The position numbers and the translations under genes are program-made. Of a stretch of DNA of 64,000 bases, positions 5,588 through 64,000 are shown in pieces (position 1 is the first letter of the stretch; the number at the start of each line of letters is the position of its first letter). The notes under the pieces are model-generated. The model was not told where the DNA came from. It made no database searches and saw nothing but the letters and a program-made list of their open reading frames with translations. The stretch comes from an uncultured virus (IMG/VR IMGVR_UViG_3300045240_000158) (taxonomy: Duplodnaviria; Heunggongvirae; Uroviricota; Caudoviricetes), in IMG/VR virus record IMGVR_UViG_3300045240_000158; one strand, 5' to 3'.

Positions 5588-5977
5588 ATGAGCGACAAGA
5601 TTGCCCGGCTCGGGATCGAGCGCGACAACGACCTGATGTACTACATCAAGAACGGCGACGTCTGGGCCGTGCCGCGCAAGCAGAAGGGGCAGCCCAAGGG
5701 CAAGGCCCAGAAGGTCGCGTCGACCGGCCTCGAGATGGACTACAGCCGCTACATCTACTTCCTCGACAAGGACGGCGATGTTGCGCGCAAGGAGCGTGCG
5801 CTCGGCGGCGGCGGTCGGCGGTCGAAGGCCAAGGCCCCGAAGGCTGTGAAGTCCTCGAAGACGGCAAGCCCCCCGGCTAGGAAGGCGCACGAGACGGTCT
5901 GGAGCGGCAAGGGCAAGAAGAGCGAGGCTCAGATCGCGCGCGAGGTCGACGAGTGCCTGGCGCGCGCCAAGAAGTAG
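5588..5977 (+). CDS. Basic Cc1-like DNA-binding protein with C-terminal tag variant
   Basis: Duplicated YYIKNGDV / YFLDKDGDV repeat, Lys-rich, GAGGAG RBS. Confidence 0.65.
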   Translation: MSDKIARLGIERDNDLMYYIKNGDVWAVPRKQKGQPKGKAQKVASTGLEMDYSRYIYFLDKDGDVARKERALGGGGRRSKAKAPKAVKSSKTASPPARKAHETVWSGKGKKSEAQIAREVDECLARAKK

Positions 5978-6259
5978 TCACCGAAGGCTGGTGACCGCTT
6001 CGATCGTGAGAGCACGTCTGAGCTTGGCGAACGCATCTTCGATCGCCGTCGCCTCGGTCGGGCCGTGTCCCACGTAGAAGCCAGTTGGGTGGTGCACGCT
6101 AGCTTCTAGCATCCCTTCCAGCGCCTCTCGTCGTGTTGCCGTTTCGACCGCGTGATTGAAGGATGGATAGACGCGCAGCGCGATGATTTCGAGCAGGAGA
6201 CGTTGCTCGCGCAGCTCGCCGAGCGTCGTCGCCTCGGTGATGCTCTTGGGGTTAGACAT
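5978..6259 (-). CDS. Hypothetical protein
   Basis: Start overlaps upstream stop. Confidence 0.6.
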   Translation of the reverse strand: MSNPKSITEATTLGELREQRLLLEIIALRVYPSFNHAVETATRREALEGMLEASVHHPTGFYVGHGPTEATAIEDAFAKLRRALTIEAVTSLR

Positions 6260-7128
6260 CAGTTGACTCTCCAATACACGAGGCCGCTGTCCGTCGTTTC
6301 CGAGTTGCCGTCGTAGGTCGCCAGGAAGTGCTGCCAGCCGTCTGCCTTGACCGCTGCTTCTGCCGCTTTCTTGATATCGATACCGACGGCATTGATCGCC
6401 TGCTTGACGGCCTCGTTGTGGCTGTACATGTCCTCGAAGTAGCGCATCGGGTTGTCCGCGTAGGCGCTGGCGTACGCCTTCTTGACGGCAGCGAGCTGCC
6501 TTTGTGTCGGCTCCATCAGGTTGCCGTCCATGGCCGTGTCTGGAACGACAGCGTCGACGTCCAAGCGCTTGGCGAGGTCCCAGAAATCGTCGACCTGGTG
6601 TCTAGCCAGCTCATCGACGTAGTCGTCTTGCAAGCGCGCGTCGTAGACCCACTTCTTGAGGGCCTTCTCGTTGATGAAGTCGTCGATGAAAGAGCCAAAC
6701 AACGACGGCTCGTTATCCAGGTCATTCTTCACGATGGTAAGTGCGATCTCTTCGGCGGTGTCCTCGTCGGGAACGACGACGTACTCCTGGTAGAAGGCGG
6801 GTGAGTTGCCCCCTAGGCGCACCTCGAAGGCTTTGTTGTAGGGGCGCCCCTTGACGACGTGGAGGCGCGAGGGTTCGACATCGAGAGCGCGCGCCATGTC
6901 GAGTTGCACGATCAGCTTCTGATTTCCTTCTTGCAGCGCCATGTCGCGTGCCACATCCCACTCCGCAGGATCGTCGCTCGCGATCAACGCGCTGATGTTG
7001 ACGCCGGACCGCTTCTTCGTGGCTCCTGCAAGGCGCCCGGGTTGCTGGGCACGACCTCGTCGTGCGAGGCTTTCTGCGATCTCCCGATCTAGCTGGGCAG
7101 GGCTCTTCTTCTTCGGGTGTTTGATCAC
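6259..7128 (-). CDS. Hypothetical protein with N-terminal AQLDREIAE tag
   Basis: 289-aa ORF starting MIKHPKKKSPAQLDREIAESLA. Confidence 0.8.
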   Translation of the reverse strand: MIKHPKKKSPAQLDREIAESLARRGRAQQPGRLAGATKKRSGVNISALIASDDPAEWDVARDMALQEGNQKLIVQLDMARALDVEPSRLHVVKGRPYNKAFEVRLGGNSPAFYQEYVVVPDEDTAEEIALTIVKNDLDNEPSLFGSFIDDFINEKALKKWVYDARLQDDYVDELARHQVDDFWDLAKRLDVDAVVPDTAMDGNLMEPTQRQLAAVKKAYASAYADNPMRYFEDMYSHNEAVKQAINAVGIDIKKAAEAAVKADGWQHFLATYDGNSETTDSGLVYWRVN

Positions 7129-7478
7129 GGCTTAGTCTTTCTGCGAGGCTTCGGCGCGTCTCCGTGGAAGCCGGCCGAGAAACCTGACCGCCGCCGCGCC
7201 GGGCGCTTCGGAGTCTCCTCGATCGCGAGACGATCGATCTTGGCGATCGGGAACGTCTGCTTGTGCTCGACCTCCCACACCTCGACGTAGTCCTCTGTGT
7301 CGTCCCCCTGGACGGCGAGGTGCCAGTCGTGCGGGAACAGCGCGCGGGTCTCGCGGATCGCCGCCTGCGCAGCGCTCGCAGGTCCCATTCCCTCGCGCAC
7401 GTGGCGATCAGCAACCTTACGGAGCTGGGTGCCTGCATGATCGATCAGATCTGCGTCAAGTTTACGTGTCGTCGTCAT
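7125..7478 (-). CDS. Hypothetical protein
   Basis: GGAGG RBS, overlaps both neighbours. Confidence 0.7.
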   Translation of the reverse strand: MTTTRKLDADLIDHAGTQLRKVADRHVREGMGPASAAQAAIRETRALFPHDWHLAVQGDDTEDYVEVWEVEHKQTFPIAKIDRLAIEETPKRPARRRSGFSAGFHGDAPKPRRKTKP

Positions 7479-8053
7479 ACGTCCTCCACGAGTATGCGCG
7501 CGATCTCAGCGCGCTCGAGCTGCTTCCACTCGGCCGGATCCTCACCCATAGGATCCTCAGTCGTCCAGACGGGCTCTGCCTCCTGGGCGAAGCCCTGGTC
7601 ACGATCCGCGTCGTAGCCGACCCACAGCGTGACGGGAAGACCGGCCTCCAGCGTCCGCAGCGCCGTCTTGTAGGTGACGGTGTCTGCGGTCTCTCGCGCG
7701 GTGTCGAAGGCTGCTCGCGCGGGGTGGTTGAGCGGGACGCTCTCCAGGATCGCCGCGGCGATCGCGCGTCGGGCCGCGCGACCAAACGATCGTGTCCGAG
7801 TCTTCGTCTTCGAGCGTGGCGCCTTTGCGAGTGCGGTGACGATCTCGCGATCGAGCGCCTTCTCGTGCTGGCGACGTGTGACCTCGACGACCTCGCCGCC
7901 GAGCTCCTTCGCGACGGCGTTGGCTGTCGACCGAGCGTAGATCCATCCGGCGCGAGGGCTGCCTGGCTGCGAGTCCGCCGCAACGTAGATCGAGCCGTCG
8001 GGCAGGCGCACCTGCCAGATCTTTTCCTCGGCAGATGGCGATCGCGTCGTCAT
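7475..8053 (-). CDS. Hypothetical protein with internal KALDREIVTAL tag
   Basis: ATGA overlap at 8050-8053. Confidence 0.7.
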   Translation of the reverse strand: MTTRSPSAEEKIWQVRLPDGSIYVAADSQPGSPRAGWIYARSTANAVAKELGGEVVEVTRRQHEKALDREIVTALAKAPRSKTKTRTRSFGRAARRAIAAAILESVPLNHPARAAFDTARETADTVTYKTALRTLEAGLPVTLWVGYDADRDQGFAQEAEPVWTTEDPMGEDPAEWKQLERAEIARILVEDV

Positions 8054-8517: not shown

Positions 8518-8556
8518 TCTTACCGTGGCGCCAGCGTGAGGACGCGATCTTCACCT

Positions 8557-9555
8557 CTAGAGCGGTCCGAACGCCGGGCTGATCGCGATCACCGCACCCG
8601 TCGACCCTGTCGTGCCGTTGCCGCCCGCGTTGACGCCCGCGCCACCGCCGCCGCCGCTGACATCCACGACTGGCTTCACTGGGTCGTTCGTGATGAGGAA
8701 GATCACACCACCACCACCGCCACCGCCACCACCAGCCTCGGCAGTTCCACTGAAGCCACCGTTCGCAGCACCTCCAGCACCTCCCAGCGCCGTGATCGAG
8801 TCCGCCGGCACCACGAAGTGCTTCGCGCTGATGACGACGACACCGCCACCGCCACCGCCGCCGCCGCCGAAACCGCTGACGTCCGCGCCACCGCTGCCGC
8901 CGCCTGGGCCGCCGCTGACCGCATCACCAACAGCCATCGTACCGATCATGTACGCGCCGACACCGGGCTGTGGAATGCCGACACCGCCTGGGCCGCCTGT
9001 GAAGCCGCCAGGACCGCTACCACCGCTGCCACCGATTCCGACCGACCTCGACGGATAGGATGGGCTATCATCGCCCGCCGTGCCCGCAGCACCTCCTCCA
9101 GCTGCCGCGTCTGCGCCTGAGGCACCGCTGAAGACGTTTGCGCCAGCTCCGCCAGTTCCGCCAGTTCCACCCGAGCTTGAACTCGCATCATTGCCAGGAG
9201 CGCCGTTGTTGGAGATGAAGCTACCTGCGCCGATCGTCAGCGTTCCAGCTACGTAGATGCGGTAGCCGTTCGTGACCAACGTGACACCGGGCGTCAGCGT
9301 CAAATTGTTCGCGAAGATGTCCTGGTTCATCGTGTAGGTACCCGACGACGGAACGAGCCCCAGCACCGTCGCGACACCGTCGAAGACCAGATCTCCGTCA
9401 ACCCCTGTACCGAACCATCCGAGATCGCCGCCGCTACTACCACTTGTGCCAGGCCCCGTTGGTCCCGTTGGGCCGACGCTGCCATCATGACCTCGATGAC
9501 CACGCTCACCACGATCGCCACGAGGACCTTCAGGGCCGAGTTTGATGTCGGACAT
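8557..9555 (-). CDS. Gly-rich fibre protein with short collagen N-terminus
   Basis: GPEGPRGDRGER collagen segment followed by polyglycine tracts. Confidence 0.8.
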   Translation of the reverse strand: MSDIKLGPEGPRGDRGERGHRGHDGSVGPTGPTGPGTSGSSGGDLGWFGTGVDGDLVFDGVATVLGLVPSSGTYTMNQDIFANNLTLTPGVTLVTNGYRIYVAGTLTIGAGSFISNNGAPGNDASSSSGGTGGTGGAGANVFSGASGADAAAGGGAAGTAGDDSPSYPSRSVGIGGSGGSGPGGFTGGPGGVGIPQPGVGAYMIGTMAVGDAVSGGPGGGSGGADVSGFGGGGGGGGGVVVISAKHFVVPADSITALGGAGGAANGGFSGTAEAGGGGGGGGGVIFLITNDPVKPVVDVSGGGGGAGVNAGGNGTTGSTGAVIAISPAFGPL

Positions 9556-9609
9556 GCCTGACTCTACTTGGACTACGCAATCTCCGCCAAAAAACGGCCG
9601 TCCCAGCTC

Positions 9610-11841
9610 TCATGCGATTTCGATGGTCACGACGGCGTTCTTGGGGCTTGTGCCCGGAATGGCGGTCTTGGTGATCGAGATCGAGACCAGGTCGCCAGCC
9701 GCGAAGGTCGTGCTCGCGCCACCGCTGTTACCCTGCGCGCTCGAGAACGCGAAGGTCGCCGCCACACCTGTATTGCCGCCATTCTTGCGCAGTGTGTAGG
9801 AGATATTGCCTGCTCCCACGCCGGGGGTCTGCTTGACGCGAAGGTTCCGGATCTTGCACGCGCGCCATACCCGGAACTGGATCTCTACGGTGGTAGCCGC
9901 AGCCAGGTCCGAGCTGGTCGCCATAAACCTGGCCGCCGTCGCGGTCGTCGTGTCCGCACAGCCGAACTGTACGTCCGTAGTGCCCACGCGGAGCCAGCCT
10001 GTCTTCGTGGCCGGCCCGCCGGTCTCCTTGTAGAAAACGATTGCGGAGTCACCCGCTCCTGCAATGTTGGTCGCGAGCGAACCCGCTGCCGCCGCAAGGA
10101 TAGTCTCGGGACCCGCGGCGGTCTCGCAGAGCCCGATTTGATCGCCTAGGCCCGCGTTGCCACCCGAAGCAAGGTTGGGCAACGACGCGTTGCTGGCGAC
10201 TGTCGAGTTGGTTCCGCCGATAAACAAGTTGTCGATCGAAGAGTAGAGGCCAATATATAGCGCTGCATTGGTCGGTGTGGAGAATAGCGATCCGGCCGTG
10301 ATCGCAAGCGCGTTCCTGCTGTAGTTGCCGACGATATGAACGCTGGCCATGTTCTGGACCGTCGGAGCGACCTTGATAGTTGCGCGCATCGAGGCCGTTT
10401 GGTCCGGGACGATAAGATTGTTGCGCACACGTATCAGATCGACGAGGAATAGGTTGCTCGAGAGCTGCACCGAAGATCCGTTGATCGGATCCGTGTTGCG
10501 ATGCGTGACGAGATTACCGTCGAGGCTGATATTGCTAGGTGACTCAAGGTTGAAGGCGAGCGAGTCGCCATCGGCGTGAATGACGTTGCCGTCGAACATA
10601 CAGTTCGTGGGGTGACCAAAGGCGTCACCCGTGAACGTAACCATGTTGCGGGCGGCGGCGTCTGGAGCTAGCGACACGAACACATTCGCGATGAACGACT
10701 GCTCGATATTGACCCGGTCGACACCACACATGGGGTTAGAACTGGTCGTGTTCGTCGCAACGATGACGTTGCCGATCCACGTGTTCGTCGACGAGTCACC
10801 GCACGAAATACCACCACCGTTGAAGCCGATGTTGTGGGCCCAGGCGATGTCCTGGCACGGCGTTGAGAAGCTTGTGCCCGAGCTCGTGAAGATCTGCGCC
10901 GGGTGCGAGCGCCCGTTGGCCTGGTTGCCAAAGTGACAGTCGCCCTGGTTCACACCGTTGCCGGTTGGCTCGTAGTCGATCGTGTTGTCGCTCGAGCCGT
11001 CCATGTAGTTGTACGCGGACTGCGTTGACACCACGTTGCGCTGGAAGCCGATCGCCGACCTGAACTTGGCCGTTCCGGTCTGGCCGACAGACTGCGCGAG
11101 GAAAATATTGCTGAGGACGAGGACGCCGTACACATTCTCGGCGTTGTTGACGAAGTTGGAGATCAGCCGGATGTGATCGCCCAGTTGGTAGTCGAAGTAG
11201 CAGCCGGTGACGGTCACGTAGTGACCACCAGGCTGTCCCAAGTCTGCGGTCGTTCCAGCGACCTGGATCGTGTGCTGCTGCTGAGCCGGATCGCCGTTGG
11301 TGCTCTGGGACGCGTCGAAGTAGAGGCCCGTGAAGGTGATGTTGAACGCGTTGTTGTAGATGTTGAAGCCGTACCAGTCAGCGGCCTGGCCATCACCTGT
11401 CATGCGGATCTGGCTCTGATAGCCGTCGCCCAGGAACGTGATGTTCTTGTGACCACTCAGGTCGATGGACTGGAGGATGTGAATATCGGCCGATCGATAG
11501 ATCGCGTACTTTCCAGGCGGGAAGTAAACGATGCCCCCACCGGCAGCGTTCGCCGCATCTGCGGCAGCCTGAATCGCCGGCGCATCGTTGGTGACGTTGT
11601 CACCGACAGCGCCGAACGCTCGCACGTTGTAGACGGTCAGGTTCACCAGGTTCTGACGAGACCAGCCCTTGGCGTTTGGGGCAGCCGTCTTCAAAAACAT
11701 GTGCGCCTGCCCGCCCGAGGGCTGGAACAGGACCGACCCCAGCGGGGCGGCCACGCCACCACCTAGGTCTGGGCGAGCTGCTTGCGCAGCCCAGTCGACG
11801 AGCTTGAGACGAAACTTGTCGACCGACAGTTCCTTGGACAT
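9610..11841 (-). CDS. Pectate-lyase-like beta-helix spike/depolymerase
   Basis: YNVRAFGAVGDNVTNDAPAIQAA..GGIVYFPPGKY cap followed by Asn-rich coils. Confidence 0.85.
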   Translation of the reverse strand: MSKELSVDKFRLKLVDWAAQAARPDLGGGVAAPLGSVLFQPSGGQAHMFLKTAAPNAKGWSRQNLVNLTVYNVRAFGAVGDNVTNDAPAIQAAADAANAAGGGIVYFPPGKYAIYRSADIHILQSIDLSGHKNITFLGDGYQSQIRMTGDGQAADWYGFNIYNNAFNITFTGLYFDASQSTNGDPAQQQHTIQVAGTTADLGQPGGHYVTVTGCYFDYQLGDHIRLISNFVNNAENVYGVLVLSNIFLAQSVGQTGTAKFRSAIGFQRNVVSTQSAYNYMDGSSDNTIDYEPTGNGVNQGDCHFGNQANGRSHPAQIFTSSGTSFSTPCQDIAWAHNIGFNGGGISCGDSSTNTWIGNVIVATNTTSSNPMCGVDRVNIEQSFIANVFVSLAPDAAARNMVTFTGDAFGHPTNCMFDGNVIHADGDSLAFNLESPSNISLDGNLVTHRNTDPINGSSVQLSSNLFLVDLIRVRNNLIVPDQTASMRATIKVAPTVQNMASVHIVGNYSRNALAITAGSLFSTPTNAALYIGLYSSIDNLFIGGTNSTVASNASLPNLASGGNAGLGDQIGLCETAAGPETILAAAAGSLATNIAGAGDSAIVFYKETGGPATKTGWLRVGTTDVQFGCADTTTATAARFMATSSDLAAATTVEIQFRVWRACKIRNLRVKQTPGVGAGNISYTLRKNGGNTGVAATFAFSSAQGNSGGASTTFAAGDLVSISITKTAIPGTSPKNAVVTIEIA

Positions 11842-11846
11842 GACGC

Positions 11847-14003
11847 TTACGCGATCTCCAGCGATGCGATCGCGTCTGTCTGACCCGCGGCCACCGCGCC
11901 GTCCTTGGTGATCGAGATCGAGATCAAGTCACCCGAGGCGACGTTCACCGTGTGCACCAGATCCGAGAGGTTCGTCGGAGCGGCAGCATCGTTGAATCCC
12001 GAGCACGTGATCGCTGTGTCGACACCGTTCACGCGCACCGTGAACGTCGTGGTCTGGTGACCGGTACCGGCACCACCGGTCGGGATACGGACGCGGAGGT
12101 TGCGTAGTGTCCCAGGGCGCGTGATCGGCACCTGAAGCTCGGTCGATGTCGGCGTCTGGATGAAGCCAGACCCCATGAAGAGCACCGTGGCGACCGTCCC
12201 CGTCGTACCCGCACCGAAAATCAAGCCCGTGCCGGCGACGCCGAGCCATCCCGTATTGCTCGTACCGGTCTCTTTGTACCAAAAGCTGGCGCCCTGACCG
12301 CCCGCGAGGTTCGCGTAGAGTGAGCCGGGCCGGGCCGTGATCGACGCTTCCGGCGATCCTGTGCCTTGAAAGAACTGCGCGCCGAACGTGCCGCCGTTGA
12401 GCCCGATGATGAGCGGCGTGGTGACGCCGACGTCCTGCACGTCGCCCACCGACGCGTCGAAGAGGTTACCCGCGTACATCGTCTTGCCCGTGAATCCGGC
12501 ACCGCCGACGATTTCGCGGTGCATGCCGAAGTCCATCGCGCTGCCCATGTTTCCCTGCACCAGCACATTGACGACGTTGGCGCCGTTGGAGAGCAGGCGC
12601 ACACCAGCGGCATATGATCCTGCCGATGCCGTGATCTGGTTACCGGCGATCAGCGCGTCATCGAGATCGGTGACCAGCGCCTGGAAGTCGAGCGCGAAGG
12701 CCGAACTGCCTCCAGCATTGGTGCCAACGCAGACGTTAGCGGTGCACGCGCACAGGGTCGTGTCGATGAACGTCAGGAAGCCGTTCCCGACGATCTCGTT
12801 GACGAGCATGTTGCTGCGCATGTTGAAGCGCGTCGGCGAGGCTCCCGCGTCGCGCTCGAGTGAGAAGCACACGCCGCCAGATGTTCCACTCTGACGATCG
12901 ACGAAGTTGCCCTGATAGAGCGAGTCGGTGACCGTCCCGAACGTGCGCCATACCGGCGAGGCGCTGGCGAACACGCCCGAGGTCTGGATGTTGGCGACCA
13001 TCGCAGCCCACTTGAAGTTACCGACCTCGGCGAAGCCTCCCAGGATGATGTTGGTCGAGCAGACCAGGTGAGCGATCAACGCGGTCGCGCCACCCTGCAA
13101 CTGAAGCGCGAACTTCTGCGTCGCGCTGGTGTGGACCAGGTGGTTGTTGAGGATCGAAACGACGCTGATCGCGATGTCGGTACCTGCGACGCCGACGATC
13201 TCGGTCTGGCAATTCGTGATGTAGTTCTCGCAGACCGAGATCTGGTTGCACGCTTCGCTGAAGTGAACGCCGTAGCGCCCGGCTCCGTCGATCTGGTTAG
13301 CGTGTACCTGGACGATGTTGGTCGTCAGGGTTCCATCGCTCTTGCCCTGGATGCGGATCGCATCGCCCGATCCCACGGCCATGCCGCCGAAGTAGCACTC
13401 GATCACCTGGCACACGGACAGGTTGCCGGTACCGTCGCCGATCTGAAGGAGGTGACAATTCACGGTCGGGTTGGTGAGCCCCGAGCCGTCGAGCTTGATC
13501 GCTTGCAGCTTGATGAACGTGCACGCGCCGACGAGCTTGACCAACGTCCAGTCGGCGCCCGCAGCGTTGCCCGACTGCAAGATGATCGATCCGCCGCCCG
13601 AGCCGAGAAGCGTCACGCCCGTGAGCGCGTTGAGCACGAGCGAGTAGCCCAGCACGCCGTTCTGCGAGCACAGGTACGTACCTGCCGGGAAGTAGACGGT
13701 GCCACCTCCAGAGGCAGCGCACGCGTCGATCGCTGCCTGACACGCTGCCCGGTCGTCGGTGATGCCATCGCCGGCTGCGCCAAAATCGCGCACGTTGAAC
13801 CACGCGAGCGACTGGGTCATGGGGACCCAGGCGGTGTTGGGGGCCGACTGCTTGAAGAAGAGCGATCCGGTCCCGCCGTTCTGACGCGAGAACAGCGATG
13901 CGACCTGGGCCGCGACGCCGCCGCCAGCAGACGGATCGACAGTGCCAGCCATCAAGTCGACGATCTTGAGTCGAATCTCGTCGGCAGAAAACTCCTTCGC
14001 CAT
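11847..14003 (-). CDS. Pectate-lyase-like beta-helix spike/depolymerase (paralog)
   Basis: FNVRDFGAAGDGITDDRAACQAAI..GGTVYFPAGTY; N- and C-termini resemble 9610-11841. Confidence 0.85.
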   Translation of the reverse strand: MAKEFSADEIRLKIVDLMAGTVDPSAGGGVAAQVASLFSRQNGGTGSLFFKQSAPNTAWVPMTQSLAWFNVRDFGAAGDGITDDRAACQAAIDACAASGGGTVYFPAGTYLCSQNGVLGYSLVLNALTGVTLLGSGGGSIILQSGNAAGADWTLVKLVGACTFIKLQAIKLDGSGLTNPTVNCHLLQIGDGTGNLSVCQVIECYFGGMAVGSGDAIRIQGKSDGTLTTNIVQVHANQIDGAGRYGVHFSEACNQISVCENYITNCQTEIVGVAGTDIAISVVSILNNHLVHTSATQKFALQLQGGATALIAHLVCSTNIILGGFAEVGNFKWAAMVANIQTSGVFASASPVWRTFGTVTDSLYQGNFVDRQSGTSGGVCFSLERDAGASPTRFNMRSNMLVNEIVGNGFLTFIDTTLCACTANVCVGTNAGGSSAFALDFQALVTDLDDALIAGNQITASAGSYAAGVRLLSNGANVVNVLVQGNMGSAMDFGMHREIVGGAGFTGKTMYAGNLFDASVGDVQDVGVTTPLIIGLNGGTFGAQFFQGTGSPEASITARPGSLYANLAGGQGASFWYKETGTSNTGWLGVAGTGLIFGAGTTGTVATVLFMGSGFIQTPTSTELQVPITRPGTLRNLRVRIPTGGAGTGHQTTTFTVRVNGVDTAITCSGFNDAAAPTNLSDLVHTVNVASGDLISISITKDGAVAAGQTDAIASLEIA

Positions 14004-14006
14004 GAC

Positions 14007-14174
14007 TCAGTACGTTCCTTCCGGGAAGTACACGACGCCTCCACCGGCCGCGACGCACGCGTTGATCGCGGCCTGAATCGCCGCCCGATCATCGGGGGCG
14101 CCTTCGCCAGCAGCACCGAAATCGCGCACGTTGATCCAGATCGGTTTCTGCGGCTCCTTTGTTTCATCCGACAT
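14007..14174 (-). CDS. 55-aa mini-gene encoding only a beta-helix cap motif (possible remnant)
   Basis: MSDETKEPQKPIWINVRDFGAAGEGAPDDRAAIQAAINACVAAGGGVVYFPEGTY-stop. Confidence 0.7.
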   Translation of the reverse strand: MSDETKEPQKPIWINVRDFGAAGEGAPDDRAAIQAAINACVAAGGGVVYFPEGTY

Positions 14175-14176
14175 GA

Positions 14177-15172
14177 TCAAGGCGCCCTATCCGCGACCTC
14201 GAAGACCAGCACATCGCCCAAGGTGAGCGATGCCGTGGTGATCACGTGGATCTGGGTGGTCGTGTAATCAGCCACGGGGATGTCGATACCGACGATCATG
14301 TTCACGCCAGCGCATTGGCCGATCGCGATGTAGTTCGTGCTCGCGCGCGCAGCGGGGAGAGGCACGATGAAGTCGGAACCTTCGGCTCCCGTCGCGGTGT
14401 ACGAGAAACGCTGCGCGTTGCCTGCCGATCCACCTGCTCCGGTCGGTCCGGTGAGGCCATCAGCGCCCGTCGGCCCCGTCACTGTCGATGCAGCGCCTGT
14501 CGGTCCCGTCACTGTCGACGCAGCGCCCGTCGGTCCCGTGCTGCCCGTGGGTCCCGTCACTGTCGAAGCAGAGCCGGTCGCGCCGGTGGATCCCGTGGCG
14601 CCCGTGGGCCCCGTCGCGCCTGTTGAGCTGGCTGTGCCTGCTGGACCCGTGCTGCCCGTCAATCCCGCTGTGCCGGTTGGGCCCGTCGGCCCGGTGACAG
14701 TCGATGCAGATCCTGTCGGGCCGGTGCTGCCAGTGCTGCCAGTTGGACCTGTACTACCCGTTGCACCCGTCAAACTGGCGGTACCAGCTGGCCCTGTGTT
14801 TCCTGTCGGTCCCGTCACTGTCGACGACGCGCCAGTCGGTCCCGTCACCGTCGATGTTGGGCCGGTCGATCCAGTTGGTCCCGTCGGACCTGTGACCGTC
14901 GACGCTACGCCCGTCGGACCCGTGATTGAAGATCCGGTCGGGCCTGTCGCGCCGGTCGGTCCTGTGACCGTCGACGCTGCACCCGTCGGACCCGTGATTG
15001 AAGATCCGGTCGGGCCTGTCGGTCCAGTTCCACCAGTCGCCCCTCCGGGCGTTCCTGATGGACCCGATGGTCCAGTAGCACCTGTCGCTCCTGGACGTCC
15101 GTCTGGACCTCGGTGACCTTCGGGTCCACGGGGGCCCCTAGGACCTTCGGGGCCGATCCTGATGTCGGACAT
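14177..15172 (-). CDS. Collagen-like fibre protein
   Basis: (GPT/GAT/GST)n repeats with AASTVT interruptions; small C-terminal domain. Confidence 0.85.
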
Positions 15173-15387
15173 GACCCATCTTCCCCCGAGTGCGGGATAC
15201 AGGCGAATTTCATGCAGTCACTAAAGAAACACGAGCAGCTCGCGCTTCGGATCTGAAGTCGAAAACGCGCCCGCAACGCGTGTTGAGCTCAGGCCGCTCC
15301 GCCTCGACGGCTTCAAACGAGCTTTGCCGCGTTTTTGGATGAGTCACGATCCCCGCCAAAAAGTCGCGTTCCCCAAGAGATCGCTAG

Positions 15388-17825
<2,438 letters not shown>

Positions 17826-20725: not shown

Positions 20726-21304
20726 TCAGAACGCGTCGTCCCCGAACGCATCGGCGACGATCATCGCCAGGTAGTCTTTGTCATACCCGCGCCAGTGCGA
20801 GGCCTTGTCGCCGACGTCCTCGCTTGTACCCTCGTAGACCTGGAGCACCTTCTTCAGGAGCTTGGCCCGCGGCATCTGCTTGTAGCGGAGGTACGTGGGC
20901 GCCGAGGCACTGAAATAGCCGTGGTCCGGCACGTAGAGCGTCATTACACCGGGCGTTTTCTCGGTGAGCTCCGGGCTGCCCGGCTTGGGCCTGGGCTTCT
21001 TCTCCTGGATCTTCTTGAGCGTCTTGTAGAAGCGATCGCGCACATCGGCCGGAACGTCGCCGAGGGCGGTCACGAAGGCAGCCGGCGCATCCATCGTGAG
21101 CGCTGCGTACGAGGGAATGCTGCGCTCCTCGCGAATCGACGCGACGATCTCGGCAGCGCGATCCAGCTTGTGCTCGAGGATCGCGTCCATCGCGACGTCC
21201 CAATCGGCAGAGACGTCCTGTCGTGTGGAGTGATGCCGACGAGGGGGCTTCCTTTTCAGGGCGTGGGCGATTTCCTTGTCGAGCTGGCGGGGCGTCTTCT
21301 TCAT
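20726..21304 (-). CDS. Hypothetical protein with N-terminal tag
   Basis: MKKTPRQLDKEIAHAL, GAGG RBS. Confidence 0.75.
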   Translation of the reverse strand: MKKTPRQLDKEIAHALKRKPPRRHHSTRQDVSADWDVAMDAILEHKLDRAAEIVASIREERSIPSYAALTMDAPAAFVTALGDVPADVRDRFYKTLKKIQEKKPRPKPGSPELTEKTPGVMTLYVPDHGYFSASAPTYLRYKQMPRAKLLKKVLQVYEGTSEDVGDKASHWRGYDKDYLAMIVADAFGDDAF

Positions 21305-21876: not shown

Positions 21877-22503
21877 TCATGTGAACCTCCGCAAAGATCC
21901 ATCGGCCGCGCGCTCGAGACGGAGCTTCTCGCCGCCGAGTGTCCGCGCTTCGACACTCTTGCCGTGGTCCCACGTCACGATCGCGGTGCCTTCGTGTGAT
22001 CCGCCGATCGTGAAGTTCGTGTACTTGATCTCGTCGCCGGGCTTCAGCGTGCGCATCTTCCGCACGGCTTCAGCGCGCTGCAAATGCGACGGTGTGATCG
22101 CCTGCATCATCGCTCGTCCACCCTCTTCGGTCTCGGGCTCGTGGCCAGCAGCACGCGCCGCCGCGGCAAGCGACGGAGCCGGGGGAGGCAGAGGACCGCG
22201 GAGGATCGCCAGGCCGTGCTCGACGACGGCACGGCCGAGTGTGGTTACCTTCCGGGGCGTGTGGAAGCCTGCGGCCGTCGTAGGGGCTGCGATCGTCTGG
22301 CCGATCTTGAGCAGACCCTTGCGACCGAGTGCGTGACGTGCCGAGCCGGACGAGAACGCAGGCGTGATGTGTCCCCGCTGCTTGAGGCCGGCGCGGATGA
22401 GCGCTTCGTTGTTGTAGTCAGCACCCAGGCGTATGCCGGCGTCATCGAGCAACGTCATCCGCTGCGACGGTGTGAGCTTCTTCCAGATCTCGGCAGGAGT
22501 CAC
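21877..22503 (-). CDS. Winged-helix-like protein
   Basis: IWKKLTPSQR..LGRKGLL..TTLGRAVVEH; GTG start. Confidence 0.6.
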   Translation of the reverse strand: MTPAEIWKKLTPSQRMTLLDDAGIRLGADYNNEALIRAGLKQRGHITPAFSSGSARHALGRKGLLKIGQTIAAPTTAAGFHTPRKVTTLGRAVVEHGLAILRGPLPPPAPSLAAAARAAGHEPETEEGGRAMMQAITPSHLQRAEAVRKMRTLKPGDEIKYTNFTIGGSHEGTAIVTWDHGKSVEARTLGGEKLRLERAADGSLRRFT

Positions 22504-22820
22504 GCTGGCACCTTCCCCGTGGCCGCGATTGCCTCGGCGATCTCGGCGTCGAGCTGCGCGGGACTCTTCTTCTCGTGCTTCGATCGCTCCCATGCGTTCA
22601 GCGCCGATTGAAGCGACATGAACGTGCGATCGGTGTGCGGCGCGAACCACTTCTCGATGCGGTGGCGGGAGCCCTTCTCGCCCAGCCACGCGTGCCCGAG
22701 GTACATGAACATGTCGCCGTCGATCGTGCGCCAGACACGAGGAGCGGTGTTACGCAGGACGATCGGGCGTGTAGAGCCTTCGGGGCCAGGTACGCGGAAG
22801 GTGCGTTGTACGAGCTTCAT
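22500..22820 (-). CDS. Hypothetical protein with C-terminal tag
   Basis: Ends EKKSPAQLDAEIAEAIAATGKVPA. Confidence 0.75.
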   Translation of the reverse strand: MKLVQRTFRVPGPEGSTRPIVLRNTAPRVWRTIDGDMFMYLGHAWLGEKGSRHRIEKWFAPHTDRTFMSLQSALNAWERSKHEKKSPAQLDAEIAEAIAATGKVPA

Positions 22821-22822
22821 GG

Positions 22823-23236
22823 TCAGCGCCCTGCCTTCGCGAGCGTCTCAGCGATCTCGGCGTCGAGCTGCGCGGGGCTTTTGCGCTGGGACAGCGGGTA
22901 CGGTGCGCGCGCCGATCCCGCGAGCATGAGGCGCTCGGCGTGCTTGACGACACTCCGACCGAGCGGCGTCAGTGCGTAATGCGCGGTGTAATCGTGGGAC
23001 ACGAGCTTGACCAGCCCGCGCTTCACGAGGGTGGATCCTTTTCCCTTGGGGGCGCGTCGGCCGCCCTCGGCAGCGATACCCGCGCGGCGCTCTGCTTCGT
23101 TGATCGCCGCTTCGTCTTCCGCGGTGTCTTCGAGAGTCCCGATAAGCTCTGCGATGTCGACCTCGGCGACGTAGATCAGGTCTGCCCGCTGCTTGGGCGT
23201 GAGCTGGTCCCAGATTTGGCCTGCCTTCGACGTCAC
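22823..23236 (-). CDS. Winged-helix-like protein with C-terminal tag
   Basis: IWDQLTPKQR..LVKRGLV..LTPLGRSVVKH..RKSPAQLDAEIAETLA. Confidence 0.7.
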   Translation of the reverse strand: MTSKAGQIWDQLTPKQRADLIYVAEVDIAELIGTLEDTAEDEAAINEAERRAGIAAEGGRRAPKGKGSTLVKRGLVKLVSHDYTAHYALTPLGRSVVKHAERLMLAGSARAPYPLSQRKSPAQLDAEIAETLAKAGR

Positions 23237-23601
23237 GGGGCACTTTTCTTCATGAGGGCCTCGGTGATCTCGGCGTCGAGCTGCGCGGGCGTCTTCTTCT
23301 CTTCGGCGGTCTCCAGCGAGTACCCGTAGCGCTCGGGATGCTCGGTCGTATCGACGAGCGTGTGCTCCGGGCGCTCCGCGTACTGCTTGTTGAAGCGGTC
23401 GAGCCACTTGAGCGCAAGTCGCACGGCCTCCTCTTTCGTCGCGACGATCTTGCCCCGATACATCTCCGTCGAGGTGCCGCGTGTCCACCAGCTCGCGCGC
23501 CAGCGAGAGGGGCGTGTGTCCTGGTAGGTGAACGGATCCGCGCCGGCTGGCTTGCGGTGACCGACGGGTTGGACGCTGAGGAAGACGCGCGCGGGCTTCA
23601 T
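23233..23601 (-). CDS. Hypothetical protein with C-terminal tag
   Basis: Ends EKKTPAQLDAEITEALMKKSAP. Confidence 0.75.
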   Translation of the reverse strand: MKPARVFLSVQPVGHRKPAGADPFTYQDTRPSRWRASWWTRGTSTEMYRGKIVATKEEAVRLALKWLDRFNKQYAERPEHTLVDTTEHPERYGYSLETAEEKKTPAQLDAEITEALMKKSAP

Positions 23602-26854: not shown

Positions 26855-27238
26855 TCAGTTCTTCTTCGAGCGCTTGCCCTCGGAGAAATAGGTCGTGGAC
26901 CTCTTCTTCCCCTTGGTCTTCACCGTGCCGTCGGCGGTCAGCTTGCGGATCGGCAGCGCGAGGTCCTTGGTCGTCGTGCCGAGCTGCGCGTTGATCTGCT
27001 CGATGCGCAGGCCGGGGTTCTTGTGCACGAACTCGACGAATTGGTCGGCGATCGCCTCCAGCTCGCTGGGGTCGCGCTTGGCGCCCTTGGCGCGGCTGGA
27101 TTTGCCGCTGCTGTGGCCGTTGAGCGCGCGGCCGTTACCGCCGCCGAGCGCGTCGGCGACGACGTTTCGATACAGGTCGCCGAGCTGGCCGACGAATTGT
27201 TCCACGAGCTTCTGCATTTCATTCTGATAGTTGGTCAT
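26855..27238 (-). CDS. Basic nucleoid-like DNA-binding protein (wHTH C-terminus)
   Basis: KRDP..NPGLRIEQINAQLG..LPIRKL..KGKKRSTTYF; GGAGA RBS. Confidence 0.8.
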   Translation of the reverse strand: MTNYQNEMQKLVEQFVGQLGDLYRNVVADALGGGNGRALNGHSSGKSSRAKGAKRDPSELEAIADQFVEFVHKNPGLRIEQINAQLGTTTKDLALPIRKLTADGTVKTKGKKRSTTYFSEGKRSKKN

Positions 27239-37213: not shown

Positions 37214-37395
37214 AGATCACAGGTGATCCCACGCGCGGAAGTCTGGAGCGGCGCTGCGTTTGGTGGGGAGGTTGCCTCGCCGGACAGGGCGGCGCTTGAG
37301 GTAGTGCCACCGCCCGCAGAGTCGGCAGAGCCAAGCGCCGGGCGAGCAGCGCCCGTCACGCTTCAGGCCTGGACAGGGGACGCGCGTGCGTAGGC

Positions 37396-40813: not shown

Positions 40814-40938
40814 GCAGCTCGTGTGCCGATAGCAGAGTGAGTGCAAGTGATGGAAGAGGCAAGGCCGGGCTTTCGCCCACCCGGGGTGTGTGGATACAGA
40901 ATCGCTGCGCTCGAGACACGGGTAGCAGGCTACCCAGG
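40814..40938. repeat. Intergenic repeat copy 1 with paired boxes (40867, 40920)
   Basis: AGCAGCTCGTGTGCCGATAGCAGAGTGAGTGCAA..GATGGAAGAGGCAAG..CTCGAGACACGGGTAG, also found near 49816-49930. Confidence 0.85.
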
Positions 40939-45567: not shown

Positions 45568-45637
45568 GGGTGCGCGCATACCCCGTGTCCGCAGGACGGC
45601 GACGCGCGACGATCGAGATACGGGTAGCGGACTACCC
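45568..45637. promoter_or_regulatory. Paired GGGTA-N6-TACCC boxes (54 bp apart)
   Basis: GGGTG-CGCGCA-TACCC at 45568 and GGGTA-GCGGAC-TACCC at 45622. Confidence 0.65.
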
Positions 45638-45977
45638 AGCACTGGCGTTCTTTGGGCGGCACGGCACGGTGACGCAGGCACGGCGCAAAACGTTGTGATC
45701 ACGGGTGAAATCCTGCAACCTGCCGCGCCCGTGCCCGCCCTGCGTCGGTCAGCTCCCAGCACGTCGACCCATCACTATGCGCATGGCGCACCAGCCCGGC
45801 TGTCTTCATGCGCCCGAGCAACATCTGCGCTGCGTAGTCGCCGCCGCCGTTTGACCGACGATCGTCGGCCTGGCCCACGGTTCGTGATCACCATGCCGAC
45901 CTCGCCGGCCGAGCTTGCCCGGTGAACGTACAAGTACGCGAGCACGCGATCGGTGGTCTTGAGCGCTTCCTTCGGCA

Positions 45978-49815: not shown

Positions 49816-49940
49816 GCAGCTCGTGTGCCGATAGCAGAGTGAGTGCAAACGATGGAAGAGGCAAGATTGGGTTTTCGGGTACCCAGGGTGGAGCGGTTCA
49901 CGAGCGGGGTGCTCGAGACACGGGTAGTGGATCACCCACC
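49816..49940. repeat. Intergenic repeat copy 2 with paired boxes (49869, 49922)
   Basis: Near-identical blocks shared with 40814-40938. Confidence 0.85.
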
Positions 49941-52097: not shown

Positions 52098-54210
52098 ATG
52101 CCAGAGGCTCAACGGACACTCTATAAACCGATCTACGAAGCAATCCGCGCGAAGCTCGTCGCTGAGACCGAGCTGCGCCCTGAGCGCTCTCTCGAAGAGT
52201 GGATCCTCGCTGAGCGCAAATGCGTGATGCGCGAGGTCAACCGGCAGCGCGGGCTACTCGCCTACGATCCCGTCGACCTCGCGGCCGTCGAGCGTGCCGA
52301 GCGCACGGCCGTCGGGCACAGCGACTACATCTCGAAGTACGCCCACGCAGCGGCGGACCTGGTGTTTCGCAAGGATCCCTAGTCACGTGTGCACTCGTTC
52401 TGCTATCACTTTCCGTGATGGACGCCGACCCGCCCGACATCGAGGTCCCGACAAGCGGGCCACCGCTCGAACCTCACGACGTTGCGAGCTGGGCTGCGTT
52501 CCTGCCGACCGTGCACGTGGACGGCGCGCTGCCCGTCACGTTCCGACCGGACGGAGATCACGTCGTAGTTGAAGTGATCGTTCCCTACGTGCCGCCCGGC
52601 CTACGGCCCTCCGCAGATCCAGCCGTGCCCATCGAAGGCAAACGCAAGATCCCGATCGCGATCGCCGCAGGCTTCCCTGTGCCGCTCACGGCGCGCTATC
52701 GCCTGCCGCGCTACGCGCCCGACAACGCCGCACACTTCCTTCGACAGATCGTGTGCATGATCTACCAACACGAGATCGACGAGCAGCTACGCGTCGGCGA
52801 CACCCGGCCCTTCGCCCCCGAGCACGTGTCATGACGAAGAAGACGTCGCGTTCCAAGTTGCGTGGCGCCCTCGCCTTCAAGGCGTGCAAGGACGGCTCGC
52901 TCATCATCCATGCCGAGTGGCCAGATGGGCGAGGCGAACACTGGTGGGACAGCGAGGCGCTGTCCGCCTACGGCAACGCGTTCGCGAAGAAGCCGAGGGT
53001 CCGATGAGAAGCCTCCCCCAATGTGCCGTGCGGACCTGTACCCACGAAGCGGATCCGCGCTGGTTCGCTCGTGATGTGAACGGTCGAGCCGTCATGATCT
53101 GTGACGGCCACGATCCAACTCCACCGGCCAGCGAGGTCACGCCCGCTTTGCCCGATCCTAGCGTGCACGACCTGGCAGAGCGCATCGTTCACCACGGCTA
53201 CAGTGCGACGGCAGCAGAGGTCGAGCGTATCGCCCACGCACTGATCGTCGAAGCGACCAACGCAAAGGAGCGCGATGCGGAGCTGGACGCGCTGCGCGAT
53301 CTTGCTTTCGCGATCCACGCCGACATCGAGCTGTCGCCCGAGCAACTGGAGGTCAAGCAGCGCTTGATCGCCGATCGCTACGCAAAGCAGGCGGCTAAGG
53401 CCGAGGACGCGATCGCCGAGGCGTGGGAGTCGGCTACACGTGACGGTGTGCAGATCGTCCGATGTCGCCGATGCCGCTTCGAGGCGTTCCCCTTCGCCGA
53501 CGCGACGATCGAGAGCCACATGCAGACATGCACACCGGAGACACGATGACCACCAAGACGGCGTACGCCAAACGCCTGACGCCCGAGGAGCTGGCCGCCG
53601 AGCTGGAAGGACTAGATCCCGAGGAGCGTGAGTACCGCCGCGTCGAGATCGCCACGAGCCCGCTGTTCGACATGTGGCTGCGCTTCCTGGACGTGGTCGG
53701 CGATCGCGCGATCGATCGGCTCGACATTACGGACGAGGACGCCGAGGCCGCGGCCAAGCAGATGGAGGGCCATGAACCCATGGGGAACGCCTTCGCGTAC
53801 GTCCTGCGCCAGATCCCGCACCGACGCCTCCTCCGCGAGCTCGCGCACAAGGCGCGTGCTGTCTGGGCGAATGGCGCGCCCGAGATGATGACGATCCCGG
53901 AGATCCACGAACGCTACGCGAAGCTGCCCAAGGGCGACGCGTGAACGATCGCATGCAGCGCTACGTCTGCGCGCACTGCGAAGCGCGGCCACCTCGCGGC
54001 GACTACATGGTGAACGACGCGGTGTGGGCGAACGCAGGTATGTCGCGGCGCGGTTTCCTTTGCCTGAGCTGCCTTGAGACACGGCTCGTCGCCGCAGGTC
54101 ATGGGCCACTCACGCTCGCAGATTTCACCGCGGTACCCAGCAACGCTGCTCTGCGGTTCGGTTACAAGCTGGCGCAACGCAAGGCTACTCAGAAAGGATC
54201 GCGGCCGTGA
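52098..54210 (+). other. Small hypothetical CDS (52098-52382, 52418-52834, 52831-53007, 53004-53549, 53546-53944, 53941-54210)
   Basis: Overlapping start/stop chain. Confidence 0.6.
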
Positions 54211-54563
54211 TGGATACCGACGAAGAGACGCTTCAGATCAGAACGGAAGTCCGCGTGCCAGTAGGCAGCCGCGTGCTTTGCACTCGGCGTCCGCAGCGCC
54301 CGCCCTTTCTGTGGCAGCGCTTCGAGATCAAGGACCCGGAGCTGTGGCTGATCTTCAACGTGACGATCGGCGTCAACTCGCTGTTCGAGCAGAACCCGGG
54401 TCGAGGCAAGGGCGTCTTGGCTTGGAGGCTCAACGAGAAGGGGCTGCTCTGCAAAGATGTCTGTCGCGCCGCGCAGGACTTCACGATCGAGGCCATGTAC
54501 ATCGGCCCAGACCCCGAGGGCGCGGAGTTCGAGTGTGATGTCATCGGACGCGTGCCTCGATGA
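54207..54563 (+). CDS. Single-domain homolog of the repeat in 4233-5306
   Basis: RPQRPPFLWQRFEI..WLIFNVTIG..FTIEAMYIGPDPEGAEFECDVIG. Confidence 0.7.
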   Translation: MMDTDEETLQIRTEVRVPVGSRVLCTRRPQRPPFLWQRFEIKDPELWLIFNVTIGVNSLFEQNPGRGKGVLAWRLNEKGLLCKDVCRAAQDFTIEAMYIGPDPEGAEFECDVIGRVPR

Positions 54564-57468: not shown

Positions 57469-58215
57469 TCAGGTATCCACGCCACGCGCACGCAGCTTCG
57501 CGAGGAGCTTGTCCGCAACTGCTGTCGGGATAGAACCCCCTCGCTCGTGCCGCACGGCGAAGGCGATGTCTTCGAGGCGCTCGTAGCCTTTCAGCGGCCT
57601 CCGCCCAGCGAGCACGTCTTGCGCGTAGCGAACCAGCTCGCTGCCAACGCGCAGCGCTGACGACGCGTCCACCAGTACGGGTCCGCGCCCACGCGCCATC
57701 ACATAGCTGTCCTCTTTGAATTCCGGCGAGAGCCAACCGTACGTCGACATCCCTTTGCGAATGTCTTTGTGGAGGCCGAACAGCTTGGAGGTTTGTGCCG
57801 GGGTGCCGCTCGGTCCGCGCACGCATTCGCGGATGAGGACATCGTGCTGCTTGTTGTAGCGCGTCCCGCGCGCCACGTGATCACGCACACCGGGCACCTG
57901 TGCGGCCTTCGTGAGCCACTCGGCCTCCTCGGCGACGGAGTCTTCGCGCCCGCGGCGGGCCACCTTGTAGGCGGTTTGGCGCTGGTCGCAGAACACGATG
58001 CCGCTCGCGCCTGCGCCTTGGTACTCCAGATCCCCGATAGCGCCCGCAGCTGCCGCGCGCTTCGCGGCCTCATCGAGCTCGTCGCCGAGCGCGTTCAGCG
58101 CGCGGGCAGAGATCTCGCCCCGGTTCGAGATCGTGGGCGTGTCCGACGGCTCCTTGGAGGCAAGAGCTTCTGCGATCTCACGATCGAGCTGGGCAGCCGT
58201 CTTCCTCTTGGCCAT
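57469..58215 (-). CDS. Atypical protein-kinase-like protein with N-terminal tag
   Basis: MAKRKTAAQLDREIAEAL; GAGASG, AYKV, EEAEWL, EFKEDS, VLVDAS. Confidence 0.65.
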   Translation of the reverse strand: MAKRKTAAQLDREIAEALASKEPSDTPTISNRGEISARALNALGDELDEAAKRAAAAGAIGDLEYQGAGASGIVFCDQRQTAYKVARRGREDSVAEEAEWLTKAAQVPGVRDHVARGTRYNKQHDVLIRECVRGPSGTPAQTSKLFGLHKDIRKGMSTYGWLSPEFKEDSYVMARGRGPVLVDASSALRVGSELVRYAQDVLAGRRPLKGYERLEDIAFAVRHERGGSIPTAVADKLLAKLRARGVDT

Positions 58216-59956: not shown

Positions 59957-60161
59957 GGGTAGATTGCTACCCGTCTCTGGAGGTTCCCACAGCTCGAGGT
60001 CAGGGGCTCGAGGCGTCGACGGGTTCCGGCGCAGGTTCCCAGTGCGTGACGCCAGAAGACACCTCCTGCTGGGTAGCTGGAGACCCGGTATCTGCCACGC
60101 CACTCGGGCTTGTCGTCGAGGCCTGCCACGTGAAGCTCGAGACACGGGTGCCCGATTACCC
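59957..60161. promoter_or_regulatory. Three GGGTA-N6-TACCC boxes in a divergent intergenic region
   Basis: GGGTA-GATTGC-TACCC (59957), GGGTA-GCTGGA-GACCC (60071), GGGTG-CCCGAT-TACCC (60146). Confidence 0.65.
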
Positions 60162-60229
60162 AGGCTCAGCGATCAAGATCTTGCGAGCCAGCCGGCTCGG
60201 GCACGCTGCCCGCAATACCCGGGTTCATC

Positions 60230-62820: not shown

Positions 62821-63347
62821 TGGACGAAGATCTGCTCAACCGCGCGCTGCCGAAGTGGCCTCAGATGATCGTCACCGGGTCGCGCCTTCGCGAAGATCTC
62901 GCGCTGGAGGTCATCCGGCGTACCGATTCGTGGTTCGTGTCTGGATCCGGCTGCAATGATCACGACGGTGATCGCCGCCTCGCGCGGCGCTTCCGCATGC
63001 CGCACTACCACGATCGCAGCTGGCGCGCCCCCGACGGCTACGACTGGCGGGCGCACTACGATCGCGAGCAGCGCTGGAAGGAGGCGTGGGGTGCGGTCGA
63101 GACCCAGTACGTGCACAACCACTGGATCGGATCGTCCTTCATCCACGGTCCGCACGGCTGGTGTCACCCCGATGGTCAGATCTACTACATCGACAACGTC
63201 GGCAAGTGGCCCTCCATCGAGGACATCCTCGCCGACTGGCGAACGCCTCGCGCCAGTATCATCGTTTCGATACGGGTAGCTTCTTACCCAGGGCTTTGTA
63301 ATCGCGGACTTGACGCCCGCGAGGCCTGGTGCGCTACTCGCATCTAA
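62817..63347 (+). CDS. Phage protein, possibly C-terminally truncated
   Basis: PKWPQMIVTG..GPHGWCHPDG..NVGKWPS; tail runs through a regulatory box. Confidence 0.6.
   Translation: MMDEDLLNRALPKWPQMIVTGSRLREDLALEVIRRTDSWFVSGSGCNDHDGDRRLARRFRMPHYHDRSWRAPDGYDWRAHYDREQRWKEAWGAVETQYVHNHWIGSSFIHGPHGWCHPDGQIYYIDNVGKWPSIEDILADWRTPRASIIVSIRVASYPGLCNRGLDAREAWCATRI
63274..63289. promoter_or_regulatory. GGGTA-N6-TACCC box
   Basis: GATAC-GGGTA-GCTTCT-TACCC-AG upstream of the 63356 start. Confidence 0.6.
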
Positions 63348-63355
63348 GAGCCCTC

Positions 63356-63751
63356 ATGACGACGAGCACCGAGCGCCGCGACTTCACCCACGGTTTCGAC
63401 AAGCTTTTCACAGTGACGCTGTGGGGGTCCAACCCCGACGAGACCGACAACGACGATTGCTGGACCGGTGACGACTACGCGACGCGCGAGGAGGCGATCG
63501 CCGCCTACCGCGAGGTCGTGATGTTCCCCGATCACAGCCAGATCGCGAAAGTGTGCGGTCGCGGCGGCTGGGAGTACGTCATGATCGACGGCCCCGAGAC
63601 GCACGAGGTCACGCAGAACCCCGATCGTCCGTCGTGCGATCGTCACCGCCGCGAGCTGGCGCGTAGCGATCGCGAGTGGCAGCGCGAGCGCGCGATGGAG
63701 GCCGGCATGCTCCACGGCGTCGAGGCGTACAACGACGAGATGGCACAATGA
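63356..63751 (+). CDS. Hypothetical protein
   Basis: Acidic ORF, ATGA overlap with the next gene. Confidence 0.7.
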   Translation: MTTSTERRDFTHGFDKLFTVTLWGSNPDETDNDDCWTGDDYATREEAIAAYREVVMFPDHSQIAKVCGRGGWEYVMIDGPETHEVTQNPDRPSCDRHRRELARSDREWQRERAMEAGMLHGVEAYNDEMAQ

Positions 63752-64000
63752 TCAAGACACCGGCTGCTCAGCTGGATCGTGAAATTGCCGAAGCGTTGAG
63801 CGGCTCAGGATCCGCGACGTTCACGGTTGCCGATCGATTCATGCGTGCCATCAACCGCAGCAACCTATCGGATTCACGCATCGCGCACACCCAACGGGCA
63901 CTCGACGTGATCCTGCATGGGAAGCTCGACGGCATGATCTACGGCCCGGAGTACAAGGACGCGAAGGACACCCTGAGTCGCCGATTCGACGACGCGTACA
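63748..64000 (+). CDS. Hypothetical protein with N-terminal tag (3' truncated by window edge)
   Basis: MIKTPAAQLDREIAEALSGSG. Confidence 0.7.
   Translation, partial: MIKTPAAQLDREIAEALSGSGSATFTVADRFMRAINRSNLSDSRIAHTQRALDVILHGKLDGMIYGPEYKDAKDTLSRRFDDAY

Follow-up and report, generated by a model that had tools for sequence, protein, structure and literature searches.

Encapsulin cargo-loading peptides are short, conserved, extended and position-flexible, and load various cargo into a shell of the HK97 fold. In bacteriophage T4, the internal proteins are described as small, basic and unrelated, with a targeting peptide as their sole common part (PMC9026906); this capsid-targeting sequence (CTS) is present on IPI, IPII, IPIII and Alt, the prohead protease is gp21, and the determinants of targeting and processing are reported to be separable (PMC9026906, PMC5694885). 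The encapsulation peptides of bacterial microcompartments (BMCs) are portrayed as amphipathic helices of 15–20 amino acids at either terminus, joined by a hydrophilic linker to unrelated cargo (PMC4594438), and the polyvalent proteins of phages contain ADP-ribosyltransferase (ART) and ParB domains that are, in the account of Iyer et al., packaged or predicted to be packaged (PMC5512222). A 15-residue peptide, hereafter the tag, is carried by otherwise unrelated proteins in a 64,000-nucleotide stretch of DNA from an uncultured virus (IMG/VR IMGVR_UViG_3300045240_000158), the whole of which is referred to as the window. The analysis supports the tag as a putative docking signal that acts at the peptide level and independently of its position; it is a real, clade-wide form of peptide-addressed cargo handling, the mechanism of which we infer. 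By analogy, the tag would work like the T4 CTS or the BMC encapsulation peptides, while being a member of neither class.

Nine tagged proteins had been listed in an initial annotation of the window, and a six-frame search located all nine peptides, in frame and within called genes (Table 1). The copies were scored with a profile derived from 101 tags on other contigs, the window and homologous loci being excluded, and 1000 shuffles of the 112 called window proteins served as the null. Seven copies scored 39.6–49.2, against a shuffle maximum of 16.0, and the divergent copy at 5915 scored just above that top shuffle value (16.1). These eight copies, which all exceed the best of the 1000 shuffles, give a clear tag in 8 of the 112 called genes, four at the N-terminus and four at the C-terminus. 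The ninth peptide is not significant alone, since it ranks 9 of 112 and 39% of the shuffles score as high, although the L050 orthologue of its gene (7475–8053) retains the same degenerate tag core. With the tag masked, the eight carriers show no mutual sequence match; none was assigned to a Pfam or NCBIfam family, and PHROGs returned one marginal match of unknown function. The labels “chromatin-like,” “winged helix-turn-helix-like” and “kinase-like,” previously given to some carriers, are therefore by eye only, and a PDB sequence search with the kinase-like carrier (57469–58215) found no match. The full-length L039 orthologue of the gene starting at 63748 matches PHROGs of unknown function.

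A scan of related viruses, which had been proposed as a check, showed that the tag is clade-wide in a group of giant soil viruses. A degenerate DNA pattern search of metagenomes returned at least 127 stretches, and 123 loci were taken from the matches listed; a locus was counted as tagged at a profile score of 25 or more. Among these listed loci, the tag is present in 65 of the 123, two or more tags occur in 35, and the maximum is 10 tags within 5.9 kb. The tagged loci have a GC content of 0.58–0.73 and derive from contigs of up to 461, 333, 231 and 202 kb. The contig to which the window belongs measures 137.5 kb, and it is contained in soil metagenome runs, one of them possibly its source. 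At the protein level, a 24-position profile detected 605 clusters (50% identity) at an E-value of 0.001 among 1.84 billion representatives. The 58 loci without a tag at score 25, mostly tails of HD-GYP proteins and methyltransferases, were rejected; L083 and L110 were removed as false positives, and the cluster P0001 was removed as an unrelated repeat protein. In IMG/VR, a strict tag pattern gave no match, a looser one gave 31 matches of which one is true (L010), and a third gave no further true tag among at least 120 stretches; all 15 pattern matches in GTDB contigs were due to chance (a UvrB tail, an HD-GYP tail and others), four queries of GenBank phages and INPHARED gave zero matches, and the contigs of four soil runs contained no interpretable joint at a tag. 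Relatives of the histone-like domain, of the jelly-roll domain and of an untagged protein conserved in the clade (all described below) were not found in IMG/VR, nor was the conserved clade protein found among the 401 Thermoleophilia genomes searched. In the literature, supplements being outside the scope, there was no description of the motif strings or of this virus group, and this shared targeting motif on unrelated phage proteins was not found. The IMG/VR and GenBank phage searches did not recover this group of viruses, for which the tag and the clade protein can serve as markers.

Among 142 distinct tags, the best-kept residues are L (139), I (138), E (135), L (133) and Q (132), and the layout comprises Lys-Lys, then S/T-x-x-Q, then L, I, A/V/C and L on one face. 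An S/T-x-x-Q element is a helix-capping box. The mean hydrophobic moment computed from the sequence is 0.48, with L, I, A and L at 200, 240, 180 and 280 degrees, and the flanks consist of 41% G/S/P/A and 21% Lys+Arg. These features suggest that the tag would form a self-capped amphipathic helix in a basic flexible linker. The T4 prohead protease cuts at a Glu-ended site within its target peptide; I-x-E occurs in 106 of the 142 tags, the Glu being replaced in the remainder, and the companion motif described below is a better candidate for a cut site. A PDB search with the tag matched designed coiled coils only and no solved natural structure.

The variation in third codon positions that was first noted in the window extends to all 142 tags, in which the share of the majority base is 0.89, 0.92 and 0.68 at codon positions 1, 2 and 3, respectively; the third positions are the least conserved, and conservation at the DNA level was not seen. 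Serine is encoded by AGY in 17 cases and by TCN in 36, and every tag copy lies in one reading frame on the coding strand. Between contigs, the identity of codons for the same residue is 0.565, compared with 0.549 expected from codon usage. Because the codons are scrambled to background, selection acts on the peptide: the tag is selected at the peptide level. For neighboring tags less than 3 kb apart, codon identity is 0.62, and the three adjacent C-terminal copies at 22.5–23.3 kb have 9/12, 10/11 and 11/12 same-residue codons in common, so that this trio (22527–23298) appears from its sequence to be a recent local duplication; tag copies may generally spread locally by duplication or conversion.

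Because a set of the top 150 proteins was biased toward tags preceded by a second motif, which the profile included, the position test was restricted to carriers derived from the loci. In the 102 called carriers from the loci and the window, the tag is N-terminal in 51, internal in 28 and C-terminal in 23, in agreement with the position independence claimed initially. The picture first drawn of the tag was incomplete, since it missed both this second motif and the shuffling of domains. The second, or companion, motif is H-[AS]-[TR]-x, commonly R-x-H-A-T-K-K; it occurs 58 times per 16,535 amino acids of tagged proteins vs. 27 times per 80,901 amino acids of untagged neighbors, and HAT is the top enriched trimer in tagged proteins. 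In carriers picked solely for the tag core, it immediately precedes 20 of the 28 internal tags, but only 2 of the 23 C-terminal and 1 of the 51 N-terminal tags (internal vs. C-terminal, Fisher p 1e-5). Where companion sites are remote from tags, 36 of 46 fall within 12 amino acids of a homology breakpoint, compared with 13.8 expected and a maximum of 25 in 2000 draws, the motif being left unmasked. The companion motif thus marks module boundaries, and we read it as a putative processing site that would be cut between the Ala and Thr of HAT. It is also present in 111 of 120 homologues of the conserved untagged clade protein. This protein (L061:1–433 and L068:1–185) is Gly-rich and helical with a His-rich N-terminus, and three tandem paralogues occur on one 99 kb contig; no fold in BFVD matches it, and scoring of its C-terminal helix did not identify a tag.

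Comparison of the sequences on either side of the tag indicates that domains are shuffled around it. The 348 tag-flanking segments of 251 carriers fall into 188 families, and among 105 two-module proteins, 21 of the 24 repeated upstream families and 16 of the 18 repeated downstream families have more than one partner. Clusters P0011 and P0025 are alike in the portion that ends with the tag and nowhere else; in P0008 and P0027, the similarity begins at the tag. In the window, the domain encoded by 22500–22820 stops after its tag, while its counterpart in L123 (73% identity over 99 amino acids) continues into another domain. Recombination is the probable route of this shuffling.

As in the T4 system, a short common peptide is found on small, basic and unrelated proteins that include an ADP-ribosyltransferase. 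The T4 CTS is a strictly N-terminal propeptide of 10–20 residues that is cut inside itself, is borne by a handful of proteins and serves an HK97-type head, whereas the tag is N-terminal in only half of its carriers (51/102) and otherwise internal or C-terminal, is accompanied by a separate His-containing candidate cut motif, and is borne by hundreds of carrier clusters. The analogy to the T4 CTS made initially is not upheld, since tags also occur away from N-termini and no capsid-like fold other than a jelly roll was found. The jelly rolls of the window bear a suggestive resemblance to capsid proteins of tailless viruses, and a head of the T4 type is therefore not presumed. Like the BMC encapsulation peptides, the tag is, to judge from its sequence, an amphipathic helix with flexible hydrophilic flanks. 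The BMC peptides share properties rather than sequence, and internal or cleaved forms are absent from the description in PMC4594438; in contrast, the tag is conserved in sequence, viral and often internal. In comparison with the encapsulin loading peptides, the tag is predicted to be helical and is viral. As with the polyvalent proteins, conflict domains (ART, ParB) are shuffled, and in PMC5512222 these are thought to be packaged and processed; polyvalent proteins are large multidomain chains, often with an MPTase, whereas the tag carriers are small and linked through a constant tag and motif, and no MPTase match was found in the 144 and 150 carriers examined.

We consider that there is about an even chance that the tag is a docking helix by which histone-like and effector proteins enter the virion core as cargo, the HAT motif being the processing site. 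While the particle assembles, the helix would dock on a single conserved binding site encoded by the virus, and a carrier tagged at either end or internally would thereby be taken up into the core of DNA and protein and be delivered along with the genome. A maturation protease would then cut R-x-H-[AS]-[TR]-K, separating the modules and, in many cases, detaching them from the tag, and recombination within the tag would create new pairs of upstream and downstream modules and hence a fast-evolving cargo set. Sorting or docking by a position-independent peptide signal, as put forward in the initial annotation, is retained in this model without its T4 framing, and virion loading is still the likeliest of the options offered there.

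The few domains that can be named fit virion cargo. They include, among 144 carriers, PARP/ART-PolyVal (2), ParB_N (1) and DUF6496 (3), although of the PARP/ART-PolyVal and ParB_N matches PARP alone passes the curated cut-off, and, among 150 carriers, sigma-70 region 4, DUF6496 (2), SPOR and a retropepsin; ParB-like PHROGs were matched by 2 of 120 carriers, and a kinase and a GNAT protein are recognized by eye only. The retropepsin-like aspartic protease forms cluster P0150 and has the companion motif and then the tag at its tail, which makes it a candidate for a self-trimming maturation enzyme. The most conserved carrier is the product of the gene 5588–5977, which consists of a small beta domain and a Lys-rich, histone-like tail; it has 905 homologues, of which 118 of the best 120 carry the tag, the remaining homologues being probably cellular. 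At helix position 8, 117 of 119 members have a Cys that is specific to this family. The clusters structurally closest to the domain of the 5588–5977 product are Myxococcota proteins, which offers a host lead only. Tagged proteins have a median length of 157 amino acids (10th–90th percentile, 100–248; longest, 398), are slightly basic and contain 0.3% Cys vs. 1.4%. Loading as virion cargo is also supported by the distribution of tags, none of which occurs in the 63 genes at 23.7–57.4 kb, a region with its own repeated palindrome. A -10-like hexamer lies 4–9 nucleotides upstream of the start codons of tagged and collagen genes in many loci, including 5 nucleotides upstream of the ATG of the gene 57469–58215, which suggests leaderless transcripts.

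Several observations weigh against loading into the virion core. Most carriers by far could not be assigned to a family, and a sigma-70 region 4 protein is among those that bear the tag. The -10-like leaderless boxes occur at 19 of 87 tagged vs. 42 of 414 other genes, with no recognizable late promoter, and the tag is only weakly linked to fibre/collagen genes (p 0.018 for 7 of 17 long loci, the loci being centered on tags). Among N-tagged proteins, only 12 of 51 contain the companion motif anywhere, and among C-tagged proteins only 3 of 23, and thus most terminal tags would stay on. AlphaFold sets the motif of the conserved clade protein inside a predicted 50-residue helix rather than in a loop, and another candidate site, [VIT]-x-G-[DN]-L, is present in 64 of 120 members of this family. 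Furthermore, the jelly-roll matches described below do not reach Z 8, and cellular jelly rolls obtain similar scores. The DNA covered stops short of the genes for capsid, packaging and protease, and it points to no particular tag reader or cutting enzyme.

A second explanation, which we regard as unlikely though deserving of serious attention, is that the tag recruits proteins to one intracellular hub, which could be viral (nucleoid or factory) or a machine of the host, for example RNA polymerase, or that the carriers co-condense with each other and with DNA, entry into the particle not being required. The best-conserved carrier is indeed a basic, histone-like protein with a domain like those of Myxococcota proteins, other carriers contain DUF6496 and sigma-70 region 4, the Lys+Arg content of the flanks would suit such a role, and most terminal tags have no candidate cut site nearby. 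The second half of the tag also fits one heptad of the designed coiled coils, but this register spans one heptad only, and the occurrence of the companion motif at module boundaries and in a conserved core-like protein is left unexplained. It is improbable that the tag is a degron, or a recognition signal for a protease adaptor or for a viral module of a ubiquitin-like protein (Ubl), E1 and JAB, with nearby Lys residues as acceptors: a ThiF E1 gene is present in the window with JAB-like and Ubl-like genes (by eye) adjoining, Lys occupies position -4 in 119 of the 142 tags, and there is a chance-level resemblance to the UvrB tail helix, but Thr or Arg replaces this Lys in 21 of 142, no linkage of the tag to Ubl genes was seen in the long loci inspected, and the companion motif is not accounted for. 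Least credible is that the tag is mainly a DNA repeat or recombination cassette incidentally read as protein, for which the near-identity of the three adjacent window copies at synonymous sites, the higher codon identity of close neighbors (0.62 vs. 0.565), domain exchange at the tag and the clustering of tags (median nearest-neighbor distance, 973 bp) might speak, but which is largely refuted by codon identity at background between contigs, together with the use of both AGY and TCN serines and the restriction of every copy to a single coding-strand frame. Recombination appears to be a side effect of a peptide under selection.

As to the particle into which cargo might be loaded, the gene 4233–5405 encodes two tandem domains whose jelly-roll fold is certain in the predicted model. 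In Foldseek, the first rows are capsid proteins of iridovirus and PBCV-1, interleaved with PM2 and cellular double jelly rolls, at low TM; in VIA, HHIV-2 ranks first (Z 7.8, rmsd 3.6, 109 aligned), followed by HCIV-1 (7.2) and SPV1 (7.0). The top structural rows belong to vertical jelly-roll viruses with an internal membrane (HHIV-2, HCIV-1, SPV1 and PM2), from which the present case differs in that all Z values are below 8, only paralogues in the accessory region are concerned, and contigs of the clade reach 461 kb. The 4233–5405 product is probably not the major capsid protein itself. Clade contigs contain 72 homologues of this jelly roll, and paralogues also occur in five loci (L073, L077, L081, L088 and L092), fused to unrelated parts; such accessory jelly-roll genes could possibly be decoys or repurposed capsid domains. 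A Pfam scan of 48 window and 78 neighboring proteins, in which the structural block was not covered, detected no portal, terminase, HK97 capsid, scaffold or gp21, nor any BMC shell family. The models suggest a tailless jelly-roll particle. Taken as a whole, the more extensive reading is a doubtful one: an undescribed, giant (to about 0.5 Mb), tailless lineage with a jelly-roll capsid, probably of Myxococcota, in which a position-independent docking helix and a cut site between His-Ala and Thr would load and mature a combinatorial library of core and effector modules, several hundred in number, with recombination at the tag itself reshuffling them.

If this lineage reading were true, the delivered proteome could be read from the sequence through the tag, which would also serve as a loading signal that can be transplanted. 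As a loading signal, a 15-residue motif would list which of several hundred uncharacterized proteins enter the host, make delivery by the virus directly testable and indicate candidates for counter-defense effectors. Peptide-addressed loading, as in T4-like heads and bacterial microcompartments, would be extended to a position-independent form and possibly to a tailless virus, with cargo evolving by module exchange at the address itself.

Table 1. Coordinates, strands and particulars of tag copies and other features in the window.
Feature	Position	Strand	Details
Two tandem jelly-roll domains, untagged	4233..5405	-	AF2 pLDDT 93
Tag, divergent Cys form, near C-terminus	5915..5959	+	Gene 5588-5977; score 16.1
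Tag, N-terminal	7066..7110	-	Gene 6259-7128, 289 amino acids, no family; score 49.2
Degenerate internal tag	7829..7873	-	Gene 7475-8053; score 0.7, not significant alone
Companion motif R-R-H-H-S-T-R, candidate processing site	21221..21241	-	Between tag and cargo domain
Tag, N-terminal	21257..21301	-	Gene ending 20726, likely start ATG 21304; score 39.6; L055 orthologue
Tag, C-terminal	22527..22571	-	Gene 22500-22820; score 45.4
Tag, C-terminal	22841..22885	-	Gene 22823-23236; score 43.6
Tag, C-terminal	23254..23298	-	Gene 23233-23601; score 45.6
34-nucleotide palindromic element	37181-37214, 40903-40936, 45605-45638, 49905-49938, 60129-60162		Also in L059, L088, L100
Single jelly-roll paralogue of 4233-5405, untagged	54210..54563	+	BLASTP E 1e-5; profile E 1.3e-5
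Tag, N-terminal	58162..58206	-	Gene 57469-58215, kinase-like by eye only; score 47.7
Tag, N-terminal	63754..63798	+	Gene from 63748, truncated by window end; score 43.8

The companion motif listed in Table 1 is the only one in any window carrier. The 34-nucleotide element ends in a spaced palindrome, and its five window copies are located in intergenic gaps of a block of small open reading frames; from this placement, it looks like an operator or promoter element. At the start of the window (255–2370), the JAB-like and Ubl-like (by eye) and ThiF E1 genes are found with a LAGLIDADG endonuclease inserted between, and a tRNA-Val gene and four tandem tRNA-Leu genes with four different anticodons occupy 2711–4228. 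A block of fibre/spike genes encoding collagen-like, glycine-rich and pectate-lyase-like proteins (8557–17574) is common to L010. The gene 26855–27238 encodes a small helix-turn-helix protein similar to MarR/Ren-like PHROGs, possibly a captured host nucleoid protein. In another contig, Type I-E cas genes (Cse1 and CT1975/Cas7; L076:16340–19671) lie less than 10 kb from tagged genes.

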